Source: Bacteroidota bacterium
Lineage (GTDB): Bacteria; Bacteroidota; Ignavibacteria; Kapaibacteriales; Kapaibacteriaceae
Reading direction: 5' to 3'
Length of the DNA: 64,000 nt
NCBI GenBank assembly: GCA_018266735.1
Contig: JAFDZT010000005.1
Coordinates: forward strand, 156,971-220,970
The notes under the pieces were generated by a model that saw only the letters and a program-made list of their open reading frames with translations, was not told the origin of the DNA and did not search any database. A program made the position numbers and the translations under genes. Positions 859 through 19,198 of this stretch are shown here, in pieces (the stretch's first letter is position 1; every line of letters starts with the position of its first letter).

Positions 859-1968
859 CTACTTTCCGTAATGAAGGGAGAGATCCATGGCGTTGAAGAT
901 CGCGATGTCGGTCTCTGTTGGTTCGATCACGGAAATGTGAACGTCGACCCATCGACCAGCGTAGGCGAAAAAGTAGTTCACACTTCGCTGGACATATGAC
1001 CGGTCCTTGTAGGTGCCCTTGGAGTCGTATTGGACACGATGATACCACGGAGTAGCAGTGGTTTGAATGGTCTCATGCTGAATGGCCGGATTACGACGTG
1101 CGCGTGGCCAGTAGTACTCGAAACACTTCGTATGGGACGTGGCATCTCCTTTGGGCTGCTCGACAAAGATCGAGATCGTGAATCGATCGGACGATGCCAT
1201 GTATTGATACCCGTCGTTCTTACTGTCCTCTTTCTTGTTCGTCAATGGCGGGGAGAGGAAACCGATCGACCATTCCTGCGATGGGATCGGAAGTTTGGTG
1301 GTGACGAAAGAGGGGAGTGAACGCTTCCACGATGCATATGAGATCGGGTCGATCGTAAGACCGCGAAGCGCATCGACCACGTCCTTTGCAATGGAATTCC
1401 ACTCCATCGCCGTCAAGATCGTGAACGTGATCATGACGTTGTCGATGAACAACGTTCCTTCCGCAACAGCAGGATACGATGGCTCGCCTTCACGATCGGC
1501 CGACGGATCGAAGGTCTTGTCTGTGGCGGTCACAACGCCGCCTATAAGATTTTCGCCCTCGATCGAACGGATAACCATGTGCGTATCGACAGCCTGTTCA
1601 CGCAGGCTTGCCGCGATCGACCCCATGATCTCGTCAACCAGTTCTGTGCGGTCTTTTTCAGATGTGAACACGGTGCGCACGACGGACATATAGGCCGTTC
1701 CTTCACCCGCCTTCGTTCGATCGAACCGTAGCGATAGTTCGCCCTTGTCGTCGAGCTCAGAGGATGGAGCGCTCCAGCCAGCGGGCATCGGGAGCAGCAC
1801 CGTACCTCGTCCCATCACCTTGATGGAGGTTGGCGTTTGCGCAACGAATGGAGAAGGGACAAGAAAGGTCAGAATCAGGAATAGCGGAAGAAGTCGCACA
1901 ATTGCACCCGGTATATGATCGGAGAGGCTCGCTGTGCAAACATCGTCACGAACCTTGCCCCTGTCCAA
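859..1968 (-). CDS. Secreted hypothetical protein, 369 aa, with an N-terminal signal peptide.
   Basis: ORF track. Hydrophobic leader LLPLFLILTFLVPSPFVAQ. No recognisable catalytic motif. Confidence 0.55.
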   Translation of the reverse strand: MDRGKVRDDVCTASLSDHIPGAIVRLLPLFLILTFLVPSPFVAQTPTSIKVMGRGTVLLPMPAGWSAPSSELDDKGELSLRFDRTKAGEGTAYMSVVRTVFTSEKDRTELVDEIMGSIAASLREQAVDTHMVIRSIEGENLIGGVVTATDKTFDPSADREGEPSYPAVAEGTLFIDNVMITFTILTAMEWNSIAKDVVDALRGLTIDPISYASWKRSLPSFVTTKLPIPSQEWSIGFLSPPLTNKKEDSKNDGYQYMASSDRFTISIFVEQPKGDATSHTKCFEYYWPRARRNPAIQHETIQTTATPWYHRVQYDSKGTYKDRSYVQRSVNYFFAYAGRWVDVHISVIEPTETDIAIFNAMDLSLHYGK

Positions 1969-2010
1969 ACACTCTACAACGCCACGTGATACGAAGACAG
2001 CGACCCGTTT

Positions 2011-2865
2011 CTAGTGAAGGATCGACCCGGGCTGCTTGACGTGGATGTCGAGCTGCGGATAGGGAACACGAATTCCGGCCTCGGCGAAGGCGGGTCGGAT
2101 CCCGAAGTTCACGGCACTCTGCAGTGAATCGGGCATGTGTGCGAATTCGCTGGTCCATACCCAGAGATAGAATCTCAATGCGGACTCACCGAAGGATTCA
2201 AAGATCACAATGGGAGGTGGCTCTTTATGGATACCGTCGATCGAATGCGCAACGGCCAAGAGGACGGTTTCGACAAGACGTGGGTCCGAATCAAAGGCCA
2301 CGTTCACGAACACCTTCATGCGCACGGTCTCATAATCGAGCGAACGGTTGATCACGGTCGACCCGATGAAGTACGAGTTCGGAACGATCACCGACACACC
2401 TTCATTTGTGCGGAGCGTTGAGGCGCGGATGGCAATGTCGACGATGTTTCCTTCGATGTTGTCGACCACGATGCGATCGCCCAGTTTGATGGGGCGCTCA
2501 ATGAGGATCACGATACCGCTGACGAAGTTGTTGACGATGTTCTGCAGACCAAAACCGATACCAACGCTCAATGCTCCAAAGATCACGGCAAGGGCACCGA
2601 GGTGTAGTCCGGACCATTGAATGGCCGTGACCCCTGTGACAATGATGATCACATAGCTCGTCAGCATCATCACGGAGTTGATCGGACCCAGATTGGCATC
2701 CGGACGCTTTGCGATACGCTTCATCACCACACGCCGGAACGTTCGCAATACGAAGACCACGATCACGATCATGATCACCGTGAGGAGGAGCGGTTTGATC
2801 GTGATCCCCTGTTCGCCCGTGTTGAGAATGGGGGTGTCGAGCAGAAAGGTCATCAGTTCATTCAT
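2011..2865 (-). CDS. Small-conductance mechanosensitive channel (MscS family).
   Basis: Three N-terminal TM helices plus a conserved MscS core (GFGLQNIVNNFVSGIVILIERPIKLGDRI ... GSTVINRS). Confidence 0.85.
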   Translation of the reverse strand: MNELMTFLLDTPILNTGEQGITIKPLLLTVIMIVIVVFVLRTFRRVVMKRIAKRPDANLGPINSVMMLTSYVIIIVTGVTAIQWSGLHLGALAVIFGALSVGIGFGLQNIVNNFVSGIVILIERPIKLGDRIVVDNIEGNIVDIAIRASTLRTNEGVSVIVPNSYFIGSTVINRSLDYETVRMKVFVNVAFDSDPRLVETVLLAVAHSIDGIHKEPPPIVIFESFGESALRFYLWVWTSEFAHMPDSLQSAVNFGIRPAFAEAGIRVPYPQLDIHVKQPGSILH

Positions 2866-2971
2866 TGAGGTCCAGCGGAAGTACGTTGAGGGATGGTTCG
2901 GTAGAGAGGCAGACTCGAACAGAGCTCAATAGTTCCATAAATTGACCGGCACAGTTGCATGGGAGGGTTCT

Positions 2972-4906
2972 ATGGCATGGGCTGCCACTCTGATCCTGGT
3001 GTTCCTGTTCGGTATCATGCCGAGCCGGGCGCAACTCACGATCACAACACCCAATGGCGGTGAGGTCTTCGATGTAGGCCAAACAGTCACGCTACGATGG
3101 ACAGGTACAGCATTTCCCGATTCGGTCTCGATCGACTATTCGACCGATGCCGGTTCGTCGTGGACGTCCATCGTTCGCAACTGGCAACAGACGACCTATC
3201 GATGGCTCGTTCCGAACACGCCATCAACCCAGTGTCTCCTGCGTGTCACCGGCCCCAAGCGCACTACAGGCAGTGGCGTCGTGCAATTGCGCGATAATGC
3301 GCGCCCCTCGACCATTCCGCACATGTCCATCGACCTTACCAACGACGCCACACGCGCCGTGGTTGCCGATGACGATGGATACGTGATGCTCTTCGATGCC
3401 GTCACGGGCGCCTTGTTGACCAAGCGACAGATCCAACAACCCACGCCCTCCGGGGCACGTGTGGTCCGTGCCGTTCTGTCCAGCGACGAAACATGGGTTG
3501 CCGCCCTTACGGAGGAAGACACCGTCTTCATCCTTCGCATGCCGGACCTCGCTGTACTCGATCATTGGGCAACACGCATCGCAAAACGGGTTCCCCTCGA
3601 AGACAGATGGATCGCCACACAGCCCGGCGGTTCGCGCGTCGCAGTGTCGAGCTTCACCCACTCACGAACGTACGAACGCAACGGAACGGTCGTCGCCGAG
3701 CTCACACGACTCAGTGCGTCATCGAACACATGTATCGACTGGACGCCGGATGGATCAAAGGTGGTGGTGAGCAGCGGGACGGAAGGACACTATCTTGCCG
3801 ATGCAACCACCGGCTCCATGCTGTCAACATTTGTCACCCCATCGTTCTATGGCTTCGTCTCACCGAACGGACAGTATCTCGCATCACAAGCAAAGAACAC
3901 TCAAGCCGTGCTCATCCGCGATCTTGCATCGGGCGCAACGATAGGATCTGTTCCGAGTGCACCGGGCATCTATCCATTTGGCATTGCATGGTATCCCGAC
4001 AACACCATCGTGCGCAATGCAGGTGCCAGTGGCGGACGTCTTGAGCGATTCAACGTCGACGGAACGATCATCGACACGCTCACATCGCAACCGTTCGGAT
4101 TCGGATCGACCTGCTTCAATAGCACGGGCTCAGTTATCGGCGGCGCATCGGGCGGATTTTCCGTGGTCATTCGCACAACCGCAACACCCACTGCCGAACA
4201 GGATGTATCCAATGCCGTGTGGGAGATCCGCGCCGCCATCGTGTCGGACACAGCCACGCTCTCCATCGATTCAGTACGTACAACAACACTGCGCGATATG
4301 CAGGTGCCGATCCGCCTTGCTCCTTCCAATGCCACGATCCTTGCAGGCCTCACATCTCTGGATGTTGATGTGGCATGGAATGCAACGTTGGCGGAGCCGA
4401 AGGGTGGCACGGCAGCAGGGAGCATTGTCAACGGCGTTCGCATGGTCACGATCACCGTACCTGTGGTGCCGATCAGTGCCGATGTTGTTGCTTACCTCGA
4501 CCTGCGTACTGCTCTTGGGAACGATTCTGCAACGGTGCTTCGTATCGTCGATGTACGCGGATCTGTGGATCCAACACGGATCCGCCGTACGGACGGACGA
4601 CTTCTCCTCACAGATCTCTGTGCAAGTGGTGGACTGCGGTTGATGAATGGAGATGGAACTGCTCTACTGATGGCACAACAGCTTGGTGATGTGCTTCGTG
4701 CGGAATGGACGACGATCGAAGATGGCGCGTGCGACATTGTCGTGATGGACGTGATGGGAAGAACGGTTGCGCGACAATGGAGCGATCAGCCGGCCGGCAA
4801 CCATTCAACGACACTGGACATTCGTCCCCTTGCATCGGGGATGCTGTTCGTGATCTTACGCACACCAACGATGTCCATCGTAACTCCGGTGCAGGTGATG
4901 CAATGA
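2972..4906 (+). CDS. Secreted beta-propeller (WD40/PD40-like) repeat protein with a T9SS C-terminal sorting domain.
   Basis: Signal peptide MAWAATLILVFLFGIMPSRAQ. Repeated beta-strand motifs. The C-terminal ~80 aa (…MDVMGRTVARQW…GMLFVILRTPT…) match the Por/T9SS CTD. Its stop overlaps the start of the next gene (ATGA). Confidence 0.7.
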   Translation: MAWAATLILVFLFGIMPSRAQLTITTPNGGEVFDVGQTVTLRWTGTAFPDSVSIDYSTDAGSSWTSIVRNWQQTTYRWLVPNTPSTQCLLRVTGPKRTTGSGVVQLRDNARPSTIPHMSIDLTNDATRAVVADDDGYVMLFDAVTGALLTKRQIQQPTPSGARVVRAVLSSDETWVAALTEEDTVFILRMPDLAVLDHWATRIAKRVPLEDRWIATQPGGSRVAVSSFTHSRTYERNGTVVAELTRLSASSNTCIDWTPDGSKVVVSSGTEGHYLADATTGSMLSTFVTPSFYGFVSPNGQYLASQAKNTQAVLIRDLASGATIGSVPSAPGIYPFGIAWYPDNTIVRNAGASGGRLERFNVDGTIIDTLTSQPFGFGSTCFNSTGSVIGGASGGFSVVIRTTATPTAEQDVSNAVWEIRAAIVSDTATLSIDSVRTTTLRDMQVPIRLAPSNATILAGLTSLDVDVAWNATLAEPKGGTAAGSIVNGVRMVTITVPVVPISADVVAYLDLRTALGNDSATVLRIVDVRGSVDPTRIRRTDGRLLLTDLCASGGLRLMNGDGTALLMAQQLGDVLRAEWTTIEDGACDIVVMDVMGRTVARQWSDQPAGNHSTTLDIRPLASGMLFVILRTPTMSIVTPVQVMQ

Positions 4907-6906
4907 AGCACATAGCGCTCATCTACTTGTGCTGCGCCACCATGGCCGTTGCGCAAGACGAACTCCGTCCACGGTATGGTCTGTTCGCCGGCGTTGGTAT
5001 CAACATGCATGCATCGTCATTCACACAGCTCCCGAATGTTCCGTCGTGCTGTCCCGGATATGGCTCGGACGTTGCCATCGTTCCCTCCATCATGGCCGTC
5101 GCATACTGGCCAATCACCACCAACGTGTTGCTGGGCGGACGTGTCGGGTATGCACCGCTTTCGGGCACGCTGAGTCGCGATGAGGCAACTCGTGTGATGC
5201 AAGGCGGCACGGTCGTCGACGGGATGTTCCGACATACGATCGAGGCAACGTTGAATGCCATTGCAGCCGAGCCCACCGTGTCGTGGAATGCATTCGATCA
5301 ACTGTTCGTTGATGCAGGACTGCGCGTCTCATACATGTTCGCACCAACGTACGCACAGGCAGAGACCATCGTCAGCCCTGCGAACGGCGGAACGTATGTC
5401 GACGCTTCCGGTACCGACACACGATCGCGCACACGGAATGTCTCTGCGGGAGATCTTGCAACATCAAGCATTCATGTTGCCGTCACGGCATCGCTTCGGT
5501 ACGAACTGCCATTGAATTCCGAGAACTCACTGTTCCTTGCTCCCGACGTTGGTGTGGCATACGGCATGACGTCGATCGCGAACGTCGACTGGAGTGTGCA
5601 TCCGTTCCACGCAGGACTCACGTTGCTGTGGCAGCCACAGGCAACACCCGAACAACATCTCGGAACACCTGGCGCGGCACCCACACCAAGTGTGCCCGTG
5701 TTGCCCTCGACCCTTGCCGCCCTCGTGCCTTCGCCAAAGATGTTGGACGTTGGGTTGGGCTTGTATTCCGTGCGCGACGATGGCGGCCTGGATACGCTCG
5801 AGAAGATCGTTGTTGACGAGACGATCTCCGAGCAGATCACGGCCATGTTGCCGATGGTCTTCTTTGACCAGGGACAGGAGGAGATTCCGATCCGATACCC
5901 TCCGAATTTCGACCTCGATCAGTTCTCCGAGCGACTGCTGTTCGGTAAAAGCGCCCTTGATGTCTACCATCGCATTCTCGACATCGTAGGGAAACGAATG
6001 CAAGAGCATCCCGCAGCAACGCTTACCCTCACCGGCGCGATCATGCCGGACTCTGTGGAGACGGTGGCGTCGGGACTTGCACTTCGTCGCGCAGAATATG
6101 TTCGAGACTATCTTCAGCAGTTTTGGGAGATAGCACCGCAACGAATTCCCATACGGGCACGTGAACTGCCCGAGCAACCAAGTAGTGTGAAACACGAAGA
6201 CGGTCGCGCCGAGAACCGTCGCGTCGATCTTGCTTCCGACGATCCGTTCATCCTCGATCTGTTGCGTCTCGAAGACACTCTGCGTACCGTGACCACTCCC
6301 GATGTGGTCGTGCGACCGACGGTGTTCTCCGATACCACGATCACATCGTGGTCGATCACCTGCATCGCCGACGGCAAGCTGCTCACGACGCAGTACGGCA
6401 TGGGCCAGCCTCCCGCAAGCATCCGTATCCCGGTAACGGGAGGGTTGCAGGGCGGCACGGTAGACGTGGTGATGACCGTCGACAATGCCGGAGGTCGTCA
6501 TCGAGAAGCAGAAGCACATCTCCCGGTGGTACTACAAACACTTGCCTCGAAGGCACAGAAGCGACAAGGACTCAAGCGCATCGACGAGTACGGTTTGATC
6601 CTCTTTGCGTTTGGGAAGGCATCGCTCGAAGGTCCGAACGCACGCATCCTCGACATGATCCGACAACGGATCGAGCCAACGTCGACGGTGATCGTTCGCG
6701 GACATGCAGATCGGACGGGATCCGCCGAGATCAACCTACGCCTCACACAAGAACGTGCCGAGGCAGTGGGGAATGCGTTGGGCGCACCACGTACCGATGT
6801 GCGTGGCATGGGTCAGAAGAACATGCTCTACGACAACGACCTTCCGGAGGGCCGCTACTACAACCGCACCGTCCGAGTACGAGTGGAGACTCCGGTTGCG
6901 AACTAG
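4903..6906 (+). CDS. OmpA-family outer membrane protein with two tandem C-terminal OmpA-like peptidoglycan-binding domains.
   Basis: Signal peptide MKHIALIYLCCATMAVAQ. Two OmpA_C-like modules (…AENRRVDL… and …GHADRTGSAEINLRLTQERAEAV…NRTVRVRVETP). Start overlaps the upstream stop (ATGA). Confidence 0.75.
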   Translation: MKHIALIYLCCATMAVAQDELRPRYGLFAGVGINMHASSFTQLPNVPSCCPGYGSDVAIVPSIMAVAYWPITTNVLLGGRVGYAPLSGTLSRDEATRVMQGGTVVDGMFRHTIEATLNAIAAEPTVSWNAFDQLFVDAGLRVSYMFAPTYAQAETIVSPANGGTYVDASGTDTRSRTRNVSAGDLATSSIHVAVTASLRYELPLNSENSLFLAPDVGVAYGMTSIANVDWSVHPFHAGLTLLWQPQATPEQHLGTPGAAPTPSVPVLPSTLAALVPSPKMLDVGLGLYSVRDDGGLDTLEKIVVDETISEQITAMLPMVFFDQGQEEIPIRYPPNFDLDQFSERLLFGKSALDVYHRILDIVGKRMQEHPAATLTLTGAIMPDSVETVASGLALRRAEYVRDYLQQFWEIAPQRIPIRARELPEQPSSVKHEDGRAENRRVDLASDDPFILDLLRLEDTLRTVTTPDVVVRPTVFSDTTITSWSITCIADGKLLTTQYGMGQPPASIRIPVTGGLQGGTVDVVMTVDNAGGRHREAEAHLPVVLQTLASKAQKRQGLKRIDEYGLILFAFGKASLEGPNARILDMIRQRIEPTSTVIVRGHADRTGSAEINLRLTQERAEAVGNALGAPRTDVRGMGQKNMLYDNDLPEGRYYNRTVRVRVETPVAN

Positions 6907-12443: not shown

Positions 12444-13112
12444 ATGACACAGAACCTCACAGATCTTCTCGCACAGTTGGAGTCACTCGGGATCGCATCC
12501 GTACGCGGACACAGCGCACGGTCCACCGACGGCCTCCGTCAATTCGGCGTCAAACTCGGCGATCTCCGCACGATCGCGAAGAAGATCAAGTCGGATCATG
12601 CGCTTGCACTTCAGTTGTGGGACACCGATGTGCTGGACGCGCGGTTGCTGGCCATCCTGATCCTCAAGCCACAGCAGCTTACGGTGCAACAACTCGAGTC
12701 CATGGTCAGGGATGCGCGTGGCGTCCAGCTCGCAGACTGGCTCACCTCGTACGTGGTCAAGCACCATCCCGAGAACGAAGCGTTCCGAGAAGCGTGGATG
12801 AATGATGCCGACCCTTGGATCGCGCGGGTAGGGTGGGCGCTTACGTCGTCGCGGATTGCGAAGGACCCGAGTGGCCTCGACCTTGCCGCCTTGCTCGATC
12901 GCCTCGAAGCCACCATGGCCACGTCGCCTTCGGAAGTACAGTGGACGATGAACTTCTGTCTGGCCAACATCGGCATCCATCACGAACGGCTCCGTGCGCG
13001 CGCCATCGACATTGGCGAGCGACTCGGCATCTATCGCGACTACCCTGTTTCCAAGGGTTGTACCTCACCCTTTGCACCCATCTGGATCCGAGAGATCGTA
13101 GGACGTCAATGA
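12444..13112 (+). CDS. DNA alkylation repair enzyme (AlkD-like HEAT-repeat glycosylase family).
   Basis: All-helical HEAT-like repeats. Sequence resembles PF08713 members (…DWLTSYVVKHHPE…WIARVGWALT…). Confidence 0.65.
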   Translation: MTQNLTDLLAQLESLGIASVRGHSARSTDGLRQFGVKLGDLRTIAKKIKSDHALALQLWDTDVLDARLLAILILKPQQLTVQQLESMVRDARGVQLADWLTSYVVKHHPENEAFREAWMNDADPWIARVGWALTSSRIAKDPSGLDLAALLDRLEATMATSPSEVQWTMNFCLANIGIHHERLRARAIDIGERLGIYRDYPVSKGCTSPFAPIWIREIVGRQ

Positions 13113-13708: not shown

Positions 13709-13718
13709 GGGGGGGGGG
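13709..13718. repeat. Homopolymeric G10 tract in the intergenic region upstream of the Type III mod gene.
   Basis: Read directly: tgaGGGGGGGGGGatatg immediately after the stop of the YdeI-like gene, about 215 bp upstream of the mod ATG. Confidence 0.9.
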
Positions 13719-13933
13719 ATATGACAAGTGTTGAACATGATGGAAGTTGTATACTCGTGATGGACAACGACAGATACGCTATTTTCGGAAACAAAAAAGG
13801 TCGGATGAGATATGCATACCGACAATTGCTCATTCGGATGAATCATACAGAGTAGTGGCATTGAGAAATGCTCCACTCCGTGAATATCCCAGCTATAAAC
13901 AGTGAACATAGCATGCTTGAAGGGATTCGCTAA

Positions 13934-15529
13934 ATGCCATCTTTGAATTGGATCGGTAAAGACGCAGTTGTGAGGCATCATAAGGACGTGCCGTTTCGAC
14001 TGCTCGAAGCAGTGCCTGAATTGTCGTGTGGCCCATCGGATTCGGGCAACTTGATCGTTCAAGGCGATAACCTTCACGCGCTGAAAGCTCTACTACCTCG
14101 ATACGCCGGACAAGTGAAGTGTATCTATATCGATCCACCGTACAACACGGGCAATGAGGGTTGGGTCTACAACGACAACGTCAACAGCCCGGAAATCCGC
14201 AAATGGTTAGGTGAAGTTGTTGGTAAAGAAGGCGAGACATTGGATCGACACGACCGTTGGCTATCGATGATGTACCCACGACTGGTCTTGTTGAAACAGT
14301 TTCTGAGCGAGGACGGAGCGATCTTCATTTCAATTGATGATAATGAAGTGGCGTCACTACGGCTGCTCATGGATGAGATTTTTGGAAAATCAAATTTTGT
14401 TGCCTGCAATACTTGGCAAAAACGATATTCAAGAGAAAATCGAGTTGCAATCGGTGATGCTCACGAGTACGTCGTCACTTACGCGATAAATCCAGTCAAG
14501 TTCAAGCACTCAGCCAAAAAATTGCCGCTTGGGCCAAAGCAACTTGCCGTTTACAAGAATCCAAACAATGATGTGCGAGGGAGATGGCGAGCGGTATCGT
14601 TATCTGCTCAAGGATATCGGCCAAACCAAATGTATGAAATCACATCCCCACAAACAGGTAAAAAGCACAGGCCACCGGAAGGGTCCTGTTGGAAAGTAAT
14701 TGAGTCGGAATACAAACGCCTATTGGAGGATGGACGAATCTACTTTGGAAAGGATGGGAATGCAGTTCCACAGCGCATACAGTTTCTCTCGAGTATTGAA
14801 GGCATTGCACCATGGACTTGGTGGCCTCATGAAGAAGTAGGCCATACCGATGAATCAAGAAAAGAGATTCAAGAGATATTTGGCACTCAAACAGCATTTG
14901 AAACACCAAAGCCCACACGGTTGATTCAGCGCATTTTGCAAATTGCCACCGATGCAAATTCTGTCATACTTGACAGCTTTTCTGGCTCCGGCACAACAGG
15001 CCATGCTGTATTAAAACAAAACACCGAAGACGGTGGAAACCGTCGCTTCATCCTAGTCGAAATGGATGAGGATATAGCGCGTGATGTTACGGCTGAGCGT
15101 GTGAAGCGGATCGCATCAGGGTACATTAATGCCAAAGGTGAAGCCGTCAATGGTCTAGGAGGAGGATTCCAGTTCTTTCATCTCTCTGATGAGCCACTCT
15201 TCGACGCCACGGGCCAGATTCGAAGTGACGTTAAGTTTGAGCAATTGGCAGAGTTCGTTTGGTTTGCGGAGACCGGCACCGGCTATAGTGGGCCCTCAGA
15301 TTCACCACTTCTTGGTATACACGAAGGTCGAGCAATCTATCTGCTGTACAATGGCATACTTAAGGACAAGTCATTTGGCGGTGGCAATGTACTCACTGCT
15401 GAGGTTTACGATATCCTGCCACCGTTTACAGGTCCGAAAGTGATCTACGCCGCTGCGAATCGCATGGGTGCTCGAGCCTCGCGTGAGGGCATCACCTTCA
15501 AGCAGACTCCCTATGCATTGGAGGTATGA
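13934..15529 (+). CDS. mod: Type III restriction-modification system methyltransferase (Mod, N6-adenine).
   Basis: Motif IV IYIDPPYNTG. Upstream GDNLHALKAL and the downstream WQKRYSREN / catalytic region are typical of Type III Mod. Low-GC codon usage. Followed by res. Confidence 0.9.
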   Translation: MPSLNWIGKDAVVRHHKDVPFRLLEAVPELSCGPSDSGNLIVQGDNLHALKALLPRYAGQVKCIYIDPPYNTGNEGWVYNDNVNSPEIRKWLGEVVGKEGETLDRHDRWLSMMYPRLVLLKQFLSEDGAIFISIDDNEVASLRLLMDEIFGKSNFVACNTWQKRYSRENRVAIGDAHEYVVTYAINPVKFKHSAKKLPLGPKQLAVYKNPNNDVRGRWRAVSLSAQGYRPNQMYEITSPQTGKKHRPPEGSCWKVIESEYKRLLEDGRIYFGKDGNAVPQRIQFLSSIEGIAPWTWWPHEEVGHTDESRKEIQEIFGTQTAFETPKPTRLIQRILQIATDANSVILDSFSGSGTTGHAVLKQNTEDGGNRRFILVEMDEDIARDVTAERVKRIASGYINAKGEAVNGLGGGFQFFHLSDEPLFDATGQIRSDVKFEQLAEFVWFAETGTGYSGPSDSPLLGIHEGRAIYLLYNGILKDKSFGGGNVLTAEVYDILPPFTGPKVIYAAANRMGARASREGITFKQTPYALEV

Positions 15530-16052
15530 GGTGGCAGAAGATTTGAAGATCATCATCATCGCCGGACCCAATGGTGCGGGTAAGACGACATTTGCAAGAG
15601 AGTTTCTGCCTCATGAGGCGAATTGTCCTGTGTTTGTGAATGCAGATCTGATCGCGTCTGGATTGTCTCCCTTTGCTCCGGAACACGTCGTCTTTCAGGC
15701 TGGACGATTGATGCTTGAGGAAATGGAACGTCACGTTCAAGCTCGGCGTAGCTTCGCGTTCGAGACAACATTGTCGGGACGCGCTTACCTTCAACATATT
15801 CGGAAGTGGAAGGCTGCCGGATATCGTGTTGAGTTGATCTTTCTTCAACTGCAGAGTGCCGACGAGGCGGTCGCTCGAGTGGCGCAGCGAGTTGCGCAAG
15901 GTGGGCATGACATCCCTGAGGAAGTTGTTCGACGCCGTTTCGAAGTCGGACTGCATAACTTCAGTCGTTACTACGCACCTGCTGTTGATATGTGGGCCCT
16001 TTACGACAATTCGTATGAGTCACCTCTATTGCTTGATTGGAGTGAACAATGA
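15513..16052 (+). CDS. Zeta-toxin-like P-loop kinase/ATPase (COG4185 / PF06414-like), embedded between mod and res.
   Basis: Walker A IIIIAGPNGAGKTT. C-terminal GGHDIPEEVVRRRFEVGLHNF, which resembles the zeta/PezT-family conserved GGHxVP…RRY motif. Start ambiguous (ATG 15513 or GTG 15531); either overlaps or abuts the mod stop at 15529. Confidence 0.7.
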   Translation: MHWRYEVAEDLKIIIIAGPNGAGKTTFAREFLPHEANCPVFVNADLIASGLSPFAPEHVVFQAGRLMLEEMERHVQARRSFAFETTLSGRAYLQHIRKWKAAGYRVELIFLQLQSADEAVARVAQRVAQGGHDIPEEVVRRRFEVGLHNFSRYYAPAVDMWALYDNSYESPLLLDWSEQ

Positions 16053-16270
16053 GCAAACCAAAGTCTATTGAAACGGCATTGAATAGTGATCTCCGCGGGT
16101 CTTGGATTGCCATACATCGTGCGGCTGCACGCGCTCGACAAATTGCCATGCAGACAGGTACTGCCTTGGTTGTAGTTAGGAACGGAGTGCTGGAACATTT
16201 GTATCCCGTATCTGAACCGAACGTAGATCGTGCTGCCGAGTCTGAGGCACGATACGGAGAGTCGTCATGA
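16049..16270 (+). CDS. Small hypothetical protein (73 aa), translationally coupled on both sides (zeta-like stop and res start).
   Basis: ATGA overlap with the zeta-like stop at 16049-16052, and ATGA overlap with the res start at 16267-16270. Low GC like the neighbours. No recognisable motif. Confidence 0.5.
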   Translation: MSKPKSIETALNSDLRGSWIAIHRAAARARQIAMQTGTALVVVRNGVLEHLYPVSEPNVDRAAESEARYGESS

Positions 16271-18963
16271 GCGCATTTGCCCCTAAAGTTTATCAGCAAC
16301 AAGTACTGGACAGTGTCGAGGCTTATTTCAAAGTATGCCACGAGCAAAAGTCACCATCGATCGCATTTACAATTACGACAGAACAATTGTGGGGACGAGG
16401 CAATCCCTATAATCCGCTGACTGGATTCCCCGCCGACATGCCTTACTTCTGCCTACGAGTACCTACAGGCGGTGGTAAGACGTGGCTCGCTGCAAAGAGT
16501 GTCCAACTGATCAATACACATCTGCTGCGCTGCGAGTACAGCGTGATCTTGTGGTTGGTACCGAGCAAACCTATCCGCGAACAGACAATAAAGGCACTAC
16601 GGGATCGAACGCATCCCTATCACGCTGCATTGCGTGAAGCCGGACCCATCACAGTGCTTGATCTTGAAGAGGCCAAGAGCGTCACTCGCTCCACGCTAGA
16701 CACTTCCACCACGATTATTGTCGCAACACGGCAAGCATTTCAAGTTGAATACGAAGAATGCCGAAAAGTATACCAGTCGAGTGGCGCACTGATGCATCAT
16801 TTCGATAATCTGTCGACGCAACAGCGCGATGTATTGCTCTACGAAGGTAGCGATGCCGAACGAACGGTGCCGTACTCGCTCGTGAACGTCCTTCGTATGC
16901 GACGCCCATTCGTTGTTGTGGACGAAGCGCACAATAGCCGCACGGAGCTTTCCTTTGATATGCTTGCACGGTTTCGACCAAGTGGAGTGATGGAGCTGAC
17001 GGCTACTCCCGACCTTGAACGAACTCCAAGCAATGTGTTGCACAGTGTTTCTGCCGCCGAACTGAAGGCGGAAGAAATGATCAAGCTACCAGTGATATTG
17101 CAGACAGAACCGAATTGGCAACAATGTTTGGCAGATGCCATCGGACGTCGCGAGGCCCTTCATACGCTTGCCGATGCCGAACACCGGGTAGGCAGTCCCT
17201 ATTTGCGACCCCTTGTACTCATCCAGTCGGAACCGCGCCGCACTGGGGTGGAGACATTGGACTTCGAGCGTGTCCGCAATGAGCTGATCACCAATCACAA
17301 TATCCCATCCTATGAGATTGTGGTAGCAACTGGAGAAGAAAAGGGGCTCGAGCAGATCGATGCCCAATACAAGCATGGAATTTCTGATCCAGCCTGCCCA
17401 GTGAAGTATGTCATCACTCAGAAGGCGCTGGCCGAAGGCTGGGATTGCCCCTTCGCCTACATTCTCGTGAGCATGGCTTCACTCTCATCGGCAACAGCAG
17501 TTGAACAAATACTTGGACGTGTGTTACGACAGCCTGGCGCCAGCCATCGGCAGGCCACTGCACTGAATCAGTCATATGCCTTTGTCGTATCGCGGAATTT
17601 TGCCGAGACGGCAAGTGCCTTGCGTGACAAATTAGTGTTAGGAGCAGGGTTTGAACGGCGCGATGTGGCAGGGTTTGTGATAGCCGCAACACCGGAGCAA
17701 GCTAGACTTGACCTCGATGCTCAGATTGCCTTTGAGCCAGTAAAAGTAATGTTGTCCGAAACGCCTGATCTTAAGAGCGTTTCCAAGCAGATACGTGAAA
17801 AGGTAAGCTGGGATGTCAAGCACAACACTCTAACAATCAGTAAACCGCTAACCGAGGATGAAACGGCTGTTCTCAAGGCCGCAGTCACCTCAGAAGAAGT
17901 AGCCTCGAAGATTGCTGTAGCAGCCCAAGAAAGTCGCGCCCAAGTGCCGGACTTCATGCAGTCGCCTGCAGAATTGGGAGAGCGCTTCCGGGTGCCGCAG
18001 TTGGCCTTACGAGTACAGGGTAAATTGGCATTGTTTGATGACGCGGAGATACTGGAGTATCCATGGGATCTCTCGATTTACGATGCTGTACCTTCTCCCG
18101 AAGAACGGCGGACATTAGGTTTAGCGATGAATGCCTCCGAGCTAGGCACCGTCGACGTCGGTTATGAAGGTCATGTGAACGTAAGCTTCCTATCTGGTGT
18201 ACAGCGAGATCTTGGACTGGTGTATCAACCGGAGAATTGGGATGAAGTGCGCATTGCCACTTGGTTGTGCCGCAATCTTCCCGAACCATCTTTAACGCAC
18301 GCGAATAAGCAAGCCTTTGTAATAAAGTGGTTGTCTGAGCTGTTGTCATCCCCTGACTACACGTTGGCTCGAGCAAGTTTGCAGAAGTTCATGCTCCGAA
18401 ACATTTTAGAGTCACGCATTCGTGACATGCGCAAGAAAGCGATACGAAAAGCCTATCAACAGGAGCTGTTTGGTGACGATGCGGCTAAGCACGTTGCAGT
18501 AACCGATACCTACTCCTTTGAGTTTCCCGCGTACACGTATGCGCCAACTCGCGACTACGACCCAAAGAAGTATGGACAGTTCAGTTTCAAAAAGCACTAT
18601 TACAGACGCATCGGAGACTTCGACAGCAAGGAGGAATTCGAATGCGCATGTTGGCTTGATACTCAGGCGCAGAAGGGACGAATCCAATTCTGGGTGAGAA
18701 ACCTTGTGCGGCGTGAAGGCAGTTCATTCTTTCTACAGAAAGCAGATGGTCGCTTCTATCCAGACTTTCTGTGCCAGTTGCCCGGAACGAATGGAGAGCG
18801 CGGCCCTGTCCTTGTGGTTGAGTACAAGGGTGCCGACCGAATGGTAGCTGCTGAAGACGACCAAAAGATAGGTCAACTTTGGGCGAACCTCTCCGGGGGT
18901 AGATGTCGGTTTGTAATGGTCACCGATAAGAAGTGGGAAATGATAGAGGAGCAACTGAGTTGA
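16267..18963 (+). CDS. res: Type III restriction enzyme Res subunit (SF2 helicase plus C-terminal PD-(D/E)xK endonuclease).
   Basis: Walker A VPTGGGKT. Motif II VVVDEAHN. Motif VI EQILGRVLRQ. C-terminal nuclease signature …YPDFLCQ…VVEYKG. Confidence 0.9.
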   Translation: MSAFAPKVYQQQVLDSVEAYFKVCHEQKSPSIAFTITTEQLWGRGNPYNPLTGFPADMPYFCLRVPTGGGKTWLAAKSVQLINTHLLRCEYSVILWLVPSKPIREQTIKALRDRTHPYHAALREAGPITVLDLEEAKSVTRSTLDTSTTIIVATRQAFQVEYEECRKVYQSSGALMHHFDNLSTQQRDVLLYEGSDAERTVPYSLVNVLRMRRPFVVVDEAHNSRTELSFDMLARFRPSGVMELTATPDLERTPSNVLHSVSAAELKAEEMIKLPVILQTEPNWQQCLADAIGRREALHTLADAEHRVGSPYLRPLVLIQSEPRRTGVETLDFERVRNELITNHNIPSYEIVVATGEEKGLEQIDAQYKHGISDPACPVKYVITQKALAEGWDCPFAYILVSMASLSSATAVEQILGRVLRQPGASHRQATALNQSYAFVVSRNFAETASALRDKLVLGAGFERRDVAGFVIAATPEQARLDLDAQIAFEPVKVMLSETPDLKSVSKQIREKVSWDVKHNTLTISKPLTEDETAVLKAAVTSEEVASKIAVAAQESRAQVPDFMQSPAELGERFRVPQLALRVQGKLALFDDAEILEYPWDLSIYDAVPSPEERRTLGLAMNASELGTVDVGYEGHVNVSFLSGVQRDLGLVYQPENWDEVRIATWLCRNLPEPSLTHANKQAFVIKWLSELLSSPDYTLARASLQKFMLRNILESRIRDMRKKAIRKAYQQELFGDDAAKHVAVTDTYSFEFPAYTYAPTRDYDPKKYGQFSFKKHYYRRIGDFDSKEEFECACWLDTQAQKGRIQFWVRNLVRREGSSFFLQKADGRFYPDFLCQLPGTNGERGPVLVVEYKGADRMVAAEDDQKIGQLWANLSGGRCRFVMVTDKKWEMIEEQLS

Positions 18964-19092
18964 GCTCAACGTTGGACAATACCACCCGCCTCTGATCAAC
19001 TGAGCAGTTAGATGGAGTTTACCTAGTTATACCCTCTCAAGATAAACTCGCTAAACTGTGTATAACTCTGCCCCCGACCCCCCCTGAAACAC

Positions 19093-19124
19093 AAAAGCCC
19101 CGTCCGAAGACGAGGCTTTGTTTG
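19093..19124. terminator. Rho-independent terminator-like hairpin between res and tRNA-Glu (imperfect 8-bp GC-rich stem GCCCCGTC/GACGAGGC, followed by TTTGTTTG; usable in both directions).
   Basis: Inverted repeat read from the sequence: 7 of 8 base pairs, a 4-nt loop, flanked by an A-run and a T-run. Confidence 0.55.
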
Positions 19125-19126
19125 TG

Positions 19127-19198
19127 TACACCGTACGGGAATTGAACCCGTGTTACCGCCGTGAAAGGGCGGTGTCCTAACCCCTAGACGAACGGTGC
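19127..19198 (-). tRNA. tRNA-Glu (anticodon TTC), CCA not encoded.
   Basis: Reverse complement GCACCGTTCGTCTAGGGGTTAGGACACCGCCCTTTCACGGCGGTAACACGGGTTCAATTCCCGTACGGTGTA folds as a cloverleaf. Very similar to bacterial tRNA-Glu (D-arm GTCTAGxGG, anticodon loop CTTTCAC, T-arm GGGTTCAATTCCC). Confidence 0.8.

Follow-up and report, generated by a model that had tools for sequence, protein, structure and literature searches.

[quoted passage not shown] It lies in a 64,000-nt stretch of contig JAFDZT010000005.1 from a Bacteroidota bacterium (GenBank assembly GCA_018266735.1), hereafter called the window. As the original prediction proposed, two genes are inserted into a Type III system, and all four ORFs are confirmed; they are co-directional and follow the order mod, P-loop kinase, 73-aa ORF, and res. 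The mod gene is not directly followed by res, and the 737 nt that separate the two hold the other two ORFs. The locus is composed of the following features.

13709-13718, + strand: G10 homopolymer at the left island boundary, read in the sequence, 215 nt upstream of the mod ATG.
13715-19068, no strand: variable island, comprising the whole Type III R-M operon and the embedded cassette, delimited by empty-site comparison and GC content.
13934-15529, + strand: mod, Type III DNA methyltransferase (PF01555, 7e-36; PADLOC MTase_III PDLC03644, 684 bits, full length).
14384-15190, + strand: central part of mod with the target-recognition region, exchanged in comparison with the close relative L001, to which it has no nucleotide match.
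15531-16052, + strand: putative toxin of 173 aa, a P-loop kinase in the zeta/PNK-like superfamily.
16049-16270, + strand: 73-aa partner protein, putative antitoxin or inhibitor, unannotated in the source record.
16267-18963, + strand: res, Type III restriction subunit (PF04851, 5e-13; PADLOC REase_III PDLC03650, 365 bits).
19094-19119, - strand: terminator-like hairpin directly downstream of tRNA-Glu, in the conserved flank outside the island.
19126-19198, - strand: tRNA-Glu (UUC), found by ARAGORN (Rfam tRNA, 62 bits), with its 3' end towards the island.

Both enzyme subunits have the hallmarks of their families. In the translation of mod, motif IV (DPPY) precedes the target-recognition domain, which is followed by motif I (FSGSG), the organization of a Type III Mod subunit. 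The DNA flanking the replaced central region is 93% identical to L001 up to 14383 and 97% identical from 15191, and the two Mod proteins share 48% identity overall. An exact look-up of the Mod sequence of the window gave no match. Res combines an SF2 helicase (PTGGGKT, DEAH, and QxxGRxxR) with a C-terminal PD-(D/E)xK nuclease motif (PD...EYK), as is typical of Type III Res, and the residues of GGGKT, DEAH, QxxGRxxR, and PD...EYK are invariant in eight homologues.

The junctions of the operon consist of one 1-nt gap and two ATGA overlaps. The overlaps, at 16049 and 16267, are read straight from the sequence and are kept in relatives. The kinase has two candidate starts. ATG 15513 gives a protein of 179 aa, as in NCBI MBS1562038.1. 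GTG 15531 is more likely to be used; it lies 1 nt past the mod stop codon (TGA, 15527-15529), is preceded by GGAGG 6 nt upstream, and yields an N terminus of the form MxxxLK and a length of 173 aa, in agreement with most homologues. Because the start is probably GTG 15531, the mod/kinase junction is abutting and not necessarily overlapping. The proposal that every junction is an overlap thus holds for 16049 and 16267 but probably not for the mod/kinase boundary. Every downstream gene starts on or beside the stop codon of the gene before it and is preceded by a GGAG of its own, and promoter- or terminator-like signals inside the operon are no more frequent than expected from shuffled sequence. 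The four genes would be carried on a single transcript, and since the starts sit on or beside the upstream stops, the pair would be made whenever Mod and Res are made.

The first inserted gene encodes a zeta-type P-loop kinase, as predicted. It matches Pfam Zeta_toxin (PF06414) with 39.6 bits against a cut-off of 22.3 bits, and AAA_33 with 39.7 bits. The Walker A sequence GPNGAGKT and an N-A-D35 segment are invariant in 40 homologues. The kinase contains both the Walker A lysine and the catalytic aspartate after strand 2 that define zeta and PezT, and equally the P-loop fold with a general-base aspartate that defines polynucleotide kinases. D35 aligns with the aspartate of Pnkp1, and we infer that it is equivalent to Asp67 of zeta. 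The top Foldseek matches are PezT and zeta, with TM scores of 0.72-0.80, and the fold may be closest to theirs. By sequence, a weak match to Pnkp1 is the only one in the PDB when P-loop-only matches are set aside. Against PADLOC, the kinase aligns solely with the P-loop portions of models for unrelated ATPases (E above 6e-4), and all NCBIfam matches are below threshold. The GTxR motif, which we take to be the UDP-GlcNAc-binding motif of zeta/PezT toxins (about 250-290 aa in total), and the C-terminal extension are absent from the 173-aa kinase, in which the segment reads ETTLSGR. Judged by analogy, the kinase may act on a nucleotide-like metabolite, like zeta toxin and AvrRxo1, or on an RNA or DNA 5'-OH end, like polynucleotide kinases.

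The second inserted gene has no gene call in the source genome, where the accessions of the genes on either side are consecutive. Its 73-aa product is predicted to contain a helix (residues 19-36), a β-hairpin (residues 40-51), and a disordered tail with the sequence ESEARYG. It matches no Pfam, NCBIfam, or PADLOC family and nothing significant in the PDB by sequence, and its exact sequence is not found in the protein collection. The structure prediction called for by the original prediction was carried out with AlphaFold2 (pLDDT 74), and all matches in a fold search with this model have E values of 0.29 or above. No helix-turn-helix, RHH, AbrB, or other DNA-binding signature and no recognisable antitoxin fold were detected in the protein. 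The lack of a known antitoxin fold or PDB match counts against a toxin-antitoxin (TA) function. The family has at least 2112 members, forming 1601 clusters at 50% identity, and all are named 'hypothetical' save one evident misannotation. The small protein, with 27-71% identity in a 40-sequence alignment, evolves faster than the kinase, with 62-83%. In 17 of 25 class-A Type III loci, the C terminus of the small protein carries a short motif, [VQ][QN]E[PS]xxx[YH]G; one class-B subclade has this motif at the N terminus, and none of the 10 copies embedded in Type I operons has it.

The operon and its cassette form an island of 5.35 kb that adjoins the 3' end of tRNA-Glu. That the block lies on the 3' side of the tRNA gene had been predicted, and ARAGORN places the tRNA 3' end facing the island. 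Two near-identical relatives, L168 and L169, are devoid of the operon. Their homology to the window ends at 13714/13715 and restarts at 19069, with flanks of 81-98% identity, and at the site of the island they hold about 0.6-0.9 kb of unrelated DNA. The same tRNA-Glu gene is found at the same position in these empty-site relatives, and the hairpin at 19094-19119 lies within the stretch that they share with the window. The G tract at the left boundary is G8 in L001 and L002, relatives of 93-97% identity. The GC content is 50.1% in the island and 56.2% in the window, and GC3 is 42-52% in the island versus 69-74% in neighbouring housekeeping genes; the predicted drop in GC is real, but the predicted values of 45-50% against about 60% are not those measured. 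These observations support a horizontally acquired island beside tRNA-Glu. As signs of integration, an integrase, att-like repeats, and directly repeated copies of the tRNA 3' end were sought, and only short repeats at chance level emerged. The tRNA is the sole non-coding RNA match in Rfam, and a search for a phage origin gave just four weak matches among 50,697 phage records.

The kinase and the small protein travel together. A kinase-anchored sample was composed of the 80 species-level loci with the closest kinases, and in this sample, which consists of the closest relatives of the query and is skewed towards its architecture, at least 44 of the 80 loci lie within R-M operons of three unrelated lineages. 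The pair is flanked by Type III mod/res in 36 loci, in 35 of them between mod and res, and the Type III hosts fall into two divergent lineages. In at least eight loci the pair is inside a Type I operon, arranged as hsdM-kinase-small-hsdS-hsdR. About 36 loci show no R-M gene inside the available flanks, and a pair without nearby R-M genes is found, for example, in Aromatoleum aromaticum EbN1. Copies on plasmids and beside Tn3 come from separate searches: the pair adjoins a Tn3 transposase on a Legionella plasmid, and 544 plasmid records contain a kinase homologue. On the Synechocystis plasmid pSYSG, the pair lies beside DarTG and PIN modules; the pSYSG genes have been listed as 'related to TA modules' and were not tested in that study (Kopfmann et al. 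2016, PMC4963859).

The small ORF is located 3' of the kinase in every locus where the contig permits, usually with an ATGA or 18-nt overlap, and the junction geometry is kept across species. The resulting toxin-first order is a minority arrangement among type II TA systems and counts against a TA reading. Five species encode the kinase and the small protein as a single ORF of 235-258 aa, and such fusions imply that the two interact physically. A covalently fused antitoxin cannot act through differential stability, and this too counts against a TA reading. The two genes decay asymmetrically. At seven loci (L027, L118, L122, L154, L120, L093, and L106) the kinase is deleted, frameshifted, or truncated and the small gene or its remnant is kept, and extra orphan copies of the small gene are found at L011, L031, and L065; in the loci examined, every intact kinase gene is accompanied by the small gene wherever the contig permits. 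The kinase tree follows the type of R-M system: Type I kinases form one clade, IIIA kinases another, and IIIB kinases further clades. This pattern points to a long shared inheritance of kinase and R-M genes and perhaps to a functional link that goes further than hitch-hiking. The match between clades and R-M type was counted against a plain TA cassette.

A random one-off insertion is rejected, as the arrangement recurs in dozens of species with conserved junction geometry. The original prediction was not aware of any described Type III architecture of this sort. The neighbourhood survey that it called for shows the arrangement to be common in databases, also in Type I operons, and to occur in two Type III lineages. 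As a system it nevertheless appears to be undescribed: a description of the pair was not found in the literature on zeta toxin or COG4185 in connection with Type III restriction, hsdM, embedding, Tn3, pSYSG, or abortive infection.

A Res-anchored sample was composed of 64 informative metagenome loci of the same Res family. In 37 of these (58%) mod is directly followed by res at the canonical 3-nt spacing, and four contain a short gap of 130-175 nt with no cassette. The kinase and small genes occupy the mod|res junction in 12 loci. Other TA pairs occupy it in 11, namely Unstab_antitox with ParE (eight), DUF2281 with PIN (two), and DUF4160 with DUF2442 (one). The last gene of every inserted pair overlaps the res ATG in a like manner. 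With 37 of the 64 informative relatives devoid of it, the pair is rejected as an invariable component of this Type III family. The original prediction also inferred obligate co-expression. Tight coupling of the four genes stands, but an obligate integration with restriction is unlikely, because 58% of the informative operons in this Res family are insert-free and other TA pairs are found at the junction.

These data are probably best explained by a functional-looking Type III R-M operon that has taken up, at its mod|res junction, a mobile cassette of two genes of the TA type. The active-looking 173-aa zeta/polynucleotide-kinase-like protein would be the toxin, and the 73-aa helix-plus-hairpin protein would bind and silence it. 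The pair has several features of type II TA modules, including small, adjacent, co-directional genes that travel together, a patchy and mobile distribution, and retention of the candidate antitoxin upon decay of the candidate toxin (seven loci) and never the reverse; no signature of a DNA-binding domain for autoregulation was detected in the candidate antitoxin. Of the three roles offered by the original prediction, an addiction module fits best. The cassette would be an optional, exchangeable accessory and not a subunit of the enzyme. Its likeliest effect would be addiction, penalising cells in which the operon is lost or switched off, and it may in addition arrest growth once host expression is blocked by a phage. 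What was observed directly comprises the gene anatomy, the family assignments, the distribution, the fusions, and the asymmetry of decay; that the kinase is toxic, that the small protein neutralises it by binding, and that the operon benefits are inferences.

A tie to restriction itself is possible but unlikely. In such an arrangement, the small protein, the Mod-Res complex, or both would hold the kinase inactive until a phage inhibited or circumvented the Type III enzyme; the freed kinase would then arrest the cell as a PrrC-like second layer of abortive infection. This role overlaps with that of a TA cassette, and the two are not mutually exclusive. The residence of at least 44 of the 80 closest kinases in R-M operons of three unrelated lineages, kinase clades that follow R-M type, and conserved junction geometry are consistent with it, as are the presence of the [VQ][QN]E[PS]xxx[YH]G motif in Type III copies and its absence from Type I copies. 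Moreover, embedded defence genes are an established pattern (PMC12707154; PMC12255303; bioRxiv 10.1101/2024.01.29.577857). However, PrrC is embedded almost exclusively in R-M loci, whereas the kinase pair persists without R-M genes, on plasmids, and beside a Tn3 transposase. Generic ParE and PIN modules interchange with it at the same junction, an insert is lacking in 58% of the informative operons from this Res family, and PADLOC models match the P-loop and nothing further. It is rather doubtful that the pair represents a dedicated and undescribed R-M-associated immune module, in which the EPxxxYG-type tail would dock onto Mod or Res and phosphorylation would provide an abortive back-up by analogy with PrrC-EcoprrI.

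Two further readings are less likely still. An end kinase that works alongside restriction, phosphorylating DNA or RNA 5'-OH ends in repair or processing with the small protein as its specificity or regulatory subunit, is improbable. No phosphatase, ligase, or Hen1 partner is present in the window or in related loci, the Zeta_toxin Pfam score is as high as that of AAA_33, and transposon and plasmid spread, decay asymmetry, and exchange with TA pairs suit a toxin better. Alternatively, the pair may tune Res relative to Mod, for instance by delaying or lowering translation of res after transfer to a new host, a regulatory role that C proteins fill in Type II systems. The position of the pair exactly between mod and res, the coupling of res to the small ORF through the ATGA overlap, and the recurrent location right after the methyltransferase gene in Type I operons agree with such tuning. 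Even so, it is highly improbable: no signature of a helix-turn-helix or of any other DNA-binding element is seen in the small protein, most operons in this family work without the insert, a regulator specific to R-M is not expected alone or on transposons, and a fully conserved kinase catalytic site is needless in a spacer.

If the pair is a TA cassette, it defines a large TA family so far missed by annotation. Over 8000 sequences of the kinase bear only the names 'zeta toxin family' or 'AAA ATPase', and the partner family of about 1600 clusters at 50% identity has no Pfam entry. In one Type III family, the boundary between mod and res would be a hotspot at which differing TA cassettes replace each other, extending to Type III the 'embedded defence gene' pattern hitherto described for Type I, BREX, DISARM, and Hma. 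Natural variants, comprising the four-gene operon, empty junctions, and other cassettes, provide a clean system for asking whether TA pairs stabilise or back up R-M, and what a minimal zeta/PNK-like kinase phosphorylates.

The pair resembles several known systems in part. Like the epsilon/zeta and PezAT systems, whose toxins are UDP-GlcNAc 3'-kinases, it comprises a P-loop kinase with a Zeta_toxin match, Walker A, and an aspartate after strand 2, paired with a small protein and mobile. However, the epsilon or PezA antitoxin is encoded upstream of the toxin, whereas the partner here is downstream and consists of a helix and a hairpin with no PDB or Pfam match. AvrRxo1-ORF1/ORF2 (Arc1) pairs a zeta-like NAD 3'-kinase with a neutralising protein encoded downstream, but AvrRxo1 exceeds 400 aa, is secreted as an effector, and has no link to R-M operons, and no similarity was found between its partner and the 73-aa protein. 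EzeT, a zeta-type toxin of E. coli, contains its antitoxin domain in cis, like the kinase-small fusions of five species, suggesting that a covalently linked inhibitor is viable. The EzeT antitoxin domain is N-terminal and epsilon-like, whereas the small domain of the fusions is C-terminal and unrelated, and the window contains two separate genes. In comparison with polynucleotide kinases, including the kinase domain of C. thermocellum Pnkp, Pnkp1, and T4 PNK, the window kinase stands alone without a phosphatase or ligase module, has a dedicated small partner, and resembles a TA pair in its genetics.

The operon context finds its closest parallels in PrrC, embedded in the Type Ic EcoprrI locus (PMC12707154), and DarTG2, embedded in a Type I system (PMC12255303). 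In each case an accessory toxic module, putative in the present locus, is nested in an R-M operon and co-expressed with it, and the same kinase cassette is found in Type I operons and, on pSYSG, next to DarTG. The locus differs in that a large share of kinase-pair copies is not embedded, unlike PrrC, and in that the effector is a kinase instead of an anticodon nuclease or an ADP-ribosyltransferase. The host is a Type III system, which lies outside the published guilt-by-embedding survey of embedded defence genes (bioRxiv 10.1101/2024.01.29.577857).

The operon at 13934–18963 consists of four ORFs in the same direction, with two extra genes between mod and res, as the original prediction had read it. 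The features of the region are as follows (window positions).

13934–15529, mod, 531 aa; PF01555 (7e-36); full-length match to the PADLOC Type III methyltransferase model (684 bits)
15531–16052, kinase ORF between mod and res; Pfam Zeta_toxin (39.6 bits) and AAA_33 (39.7 bits)
16049–16270, 73-aa ORF (small protein); no family match in Pfam, NCBIfam or PADLOC
16267–18963, res, 898 aa; PF04851; PADLOC Type III restriction model (365 bits)
19126–19198, minus strand, tRNA-Glu(UUC), 3' end adjoining the variable segment that holds the operon

Mod contains DPPY followed by FSGSG, the order usual for Type III Mods, and Res contains PTGGGKT, DEAH and QxxGRxxR together with a C-terminal PD...EYK; the Res motifs are unchanged across eight homologues. 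The profile search proposed for the kinase product, against PF06414 and AAA_33, retrieved both families. Both predicted ATGA overlaps are present, one at 16049, where the kinase ends and the small ORF begins, and one at 16267, where the small ORF ends and res begins, with GGAG upstream of each start. The mod–kinase junction is likewise tightly coupled under either choice of start, but the overlap proposed there (17 nt) needs the NCBI-annotated ATG at 15513. GTG 15531 is the best candidate start, because it lies 1 nt past the mod TGA, has GGAGG 6 nt upstream, and gives an MxxxLK N terminus and a length of 173 aa as in most homologues. Promoter- or terminator-like matches within the operon do not exceed shuffle expectation. 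In the NCBI record, the accession of the kinase (MBS1562038.1) is followed directly by that of Res (MBS1562039.1), and a collection of 15 billion proteins lacks the exact 73-aa sequence; thus, the small ORF was never annotated in the source genome.

The kinase is confidently modeled by AlphaFold2 (pLDDT 90.8). A Foldseek search with the model ranks PezT and zeta at the top (TM 0.72–0.80), followed by the Clostridium thermocellum polynucleotide kinase and AvrRxo1. The sequence-profile search against the PDB orders its matches differently, the Pnkp1 kinase domain being the strongest beyond P-loop-only matches (E 0.003). Conservation is complete at Walker A, Asp35, E74-T75-T76, two arginines and a QGGH motif, so the kinase looks enzymatically active. 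However, it is about 100 residues shorter than zeta and PezT, has ETTLSGR at the place of the GTxR segment by which zeta binds UDP-GlcNAc, and is followed by a downstream partner unrelated to epsilon. For these reasons it is not filed as a UDP-GlcNAc kinase. The zeta/PezT likeness first proposed is supported by the Zeta_toxin match, and the proposed poisoning of the cell wall through UDP-GlcNAc is not assigned to it.

The small protein belongs to a family of at least 2112 members (1601 clusters at 50% identity, in 1.84 billion), all named hypothetical save one evident misannotation. The family shares the core motif D-x-DLR-x-S-x-x-AL-x-RAA-x-x-AR-x-x-A-x-QTGT-x-(I/L)V. The AlphaFold2 model (pLDDT 74) predicts a helix (19–36), a β-hairpin (40–51) and a disordered tail, and matches no PDB entry by structure; nor does the sequence. 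The tail includes ESEARYG (residues 64–70, 16238–16258). A [VQ][QN]E[PS]xxx[YH]G motif occurs in the C-terminal tail at 17 of 25 class-A Type III loci, at the N terminus in one Type III subclade of class B, and within the kinase–small fusions as part of their linker, and is found in none of ten Type I-embedded small proteins. Possible functions are a docking site or a degron.

More than 8000 kinase relatives are found in databases, named 'zeta toxin family protein', 'AAA family ATPase' or 'predicted ABC-type ATPase'; the best are 72–83% identical and chiefly from Betaproteobacteria. The 80 closest species-level genomic loci were compared (L-numbers denote comparison loci from other genomes or records). 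A small-protein homologue directly follows the kinase wherever the contig permits, usually with an overlap of 4 or 18 nt at the kinase stop, and it diverges faster (27–71% identity versus 62–83% for the kinase). Kinase and small protein are fused into a single ORF of 235–258 aa in five species (L040, L058, L061, L068, L078), which argues for direct contact between the two proteins. The fusion loci are in Comamonadaceae/Ramlibacter-type genomes, all five outside R-M operons. The kinase is lost, frameshifted or truncated at L027, L118, L122, L154, L120, L093 and L106, where the small gene or a remnant is kept, and additional orphan small genes occur at L011, L031 and L065. None of the loci examined has an intact kinase but no small gene. 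Such asymmetric decay is what a kinase that does harm unless its partner is present would produce.

At 36 of the 80 loci the pair is flanked by Type III mod and/or res, a proportion skewed toward the window's architecture, as the loci are the query's nearest relatives. In 35 of the 36 it is inserted between mod and res, and in L064 it is just 5' of mod. About 25 represent the window's Mod/Res family and 11 a divergent Type III lineage (Mod 29–41%, Res 23–39% identical to the window's); three further loci of the 80 hold remnants. At least eight kinase loci lie within Type I operons, with the order hsdM–kinase–small–hsdS–hsdR in L067 and L073. RhuM-family genes or fragments recur beside the pair, particularly in Type I contexts (L017, L025, L045, L070, L071, L077, L082). 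On the Synechocystis PCC 6803 plasmid pSYSG (L086), a kinase of 61% identity and a small homologue of 59 aa lie between hsdS and DarT/DarG. The gene order there (record positions 1920–6601) is Type I hsdS, nucleotidyltransferase, zeta-like kinase, small homologue, DarT (DUF4433) and DarG (macro domain), with a DUF433/PIN pair upstream, so that toxin-antitoxin modules are stacked in a single R-M locus. Kopfmann et al. 2016 described the pSYSG pair genes as 'related to TA modules'; they failed the criteria and were untested there (PMC4963859).

The pair also occurs without nearby R-M genes, e.g., in Aromatoleum aromaticum EbN1, and on a Legionella plasmid it adjoins a Tn3 transposase. A kinase homologue is present in 544 plasmid records; phage records yield four weak matches only. 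In a neighbor-joining tree, the kinases cluster by context, with solo copies dispersed within every clade.

An independent sample was anchored on Res by scanning metagenome contigs with a Res alignment, giving 64 loci with enough upstream sequence (Res 55–86% identical to the window's).

Content of the mod–res junction at 64 Res-anchored loci
Canonical, mod directly 5' of res with a 3-nt spacer: 37
Kinase + small: 12
Unstab_antitox + ParE_toxin: 8
DUF2281 + PIN: 2
DUF4160 + DUF2442: 1
Short non-coding gap: 4

Junctions with ParE/Unstab_antitox, PIN/DUF2281 or DUF4160/DUF2442 cassettes are seen at L093, L106, L114, L120, L128, L129, L132, L160–L162 and L164; L127 encodes the small protein joined to an Unstab_antitox-like C terminus.

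The kinase pair is the commonest cassette, and in every inserted pair the second gene overlaps the ATG of res in like manner. This marks the mod–res junction as a hotspot where one toxin-antitoxin cassette can take the place of another. Cassette replacement leaves scars, namely small-gene remnants beside PIN and DUF4160 cassettes (L093, L106, L120) and orphan Unstab_antitox genes beside the kinase pair (L007, L014).

The window derives from a Bacteroidota metagenome-assembled genome (region proteins MBS1562035–44, on a contig of 226 kb). Two close relatives, L168 and L169, have flanks 81–98% identical to the window and the order DUF1801, about 0.6–0.9 kb of other DNA, tRNA-Glu and CoaE, with the R-M genes absent. 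Similarity ends at 13714/13715 and resumes at 19069, so the operon is a 5.35-kb variable segment. The DNA at this site in the relatives (L168 7272–8144, L169 7587–8147) is unrelated and encodes a 131-aa minus-strand ORF with no Pfam match; given this, the tRNA-Glu-adjoining locus appears to hold alternative cargo. The original description of a low-GC island on the 3' side of tRNA-Glu stands in its location and lower GC, but the values are 50.1% for the island versus 56.2% for the window, not 45–50% versus 60%. GC3 is 42–52% in the island and 69–74% in neighboring housekeeping genes. Neither an integrase nor flanking repeats were found around the island. A second insertion/deletion difference is the DNA-alkylation-repair gene at 12444–13112 (segment 12433–13129); in L168 and L169, VIT1 is followed directly by DUF1801.

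The operon is present at the same site in L001 (flank 93%, kinase-to-res stretch 97% identical). Nucleotide similarity to L001 is missing from the middle of mod (14384–15190), though the rest of the operon is 93–97% identical, which indicates a swap of the target-recognition domain and implies a recent change of specificity inside one lineage. A G10 homopolymer (13709–13718) lies on the left boundary of the island, right after the upstream DUF1801 stop and 215 nt 5' of mod; L001 and L002 (93–97% identical) have G8 at this position. The tract may be prone to slippage within the promoter region of mod, or the length difference may have arisen in sequencing or assembly.

The best-supported account, which we consider probable, is that the pair is a mobile toxin-antitoxin-type cassette settled in a Type III exchange hotspot and co-expressed with the operon. 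A PrrC-like guardian role, an abortive-infection reading, would fit the strong, old association with R-M operons, the occurrence in three R-M lineages, and the short tail motif common to many Type III-linked small proteins and missing from Type I-linked ones. However, solo, plasmid-borne and transposon-associated copies exist and the pair interchanges with generic toxin-antitoxin modules, and we regard this role as unlikely. Of the three roles first proposed, addiction module, abortive-infection layer and regulator, the addiction (toxin-antitoxin) module fits best. The cassette may be a hitch-hiker, an operon stabilizer or an abortive-infection back-up, all three being candidates.

Toxic accessory modules are embedded in Type I R-M operons, including PrrC (PMC12707154) and DarTG2 (PMC12255303). 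A systematic 'guilt-by-embedding' survey covered Hma, BREX, DISARM and Type I systems; Type III systems were outside its scope and zeta-like kinases are not mentioned (bioRxiv 10.1101/2024.01.29.577857). PADLOC has no model for the kinase or the small protein, and in a literature search of incomplete coverage no paper turned up that describes the pair, or toxin-antitoxin cassettes between mod and res. The architecture, predicted to be without described counterpart, is so in the literature searched, but is recurrent in databases (35 of the 80 closest kinase loci). The finding is real, recurrent and undescribed, and its concept is in line with the known modules embedded in Type I systems.
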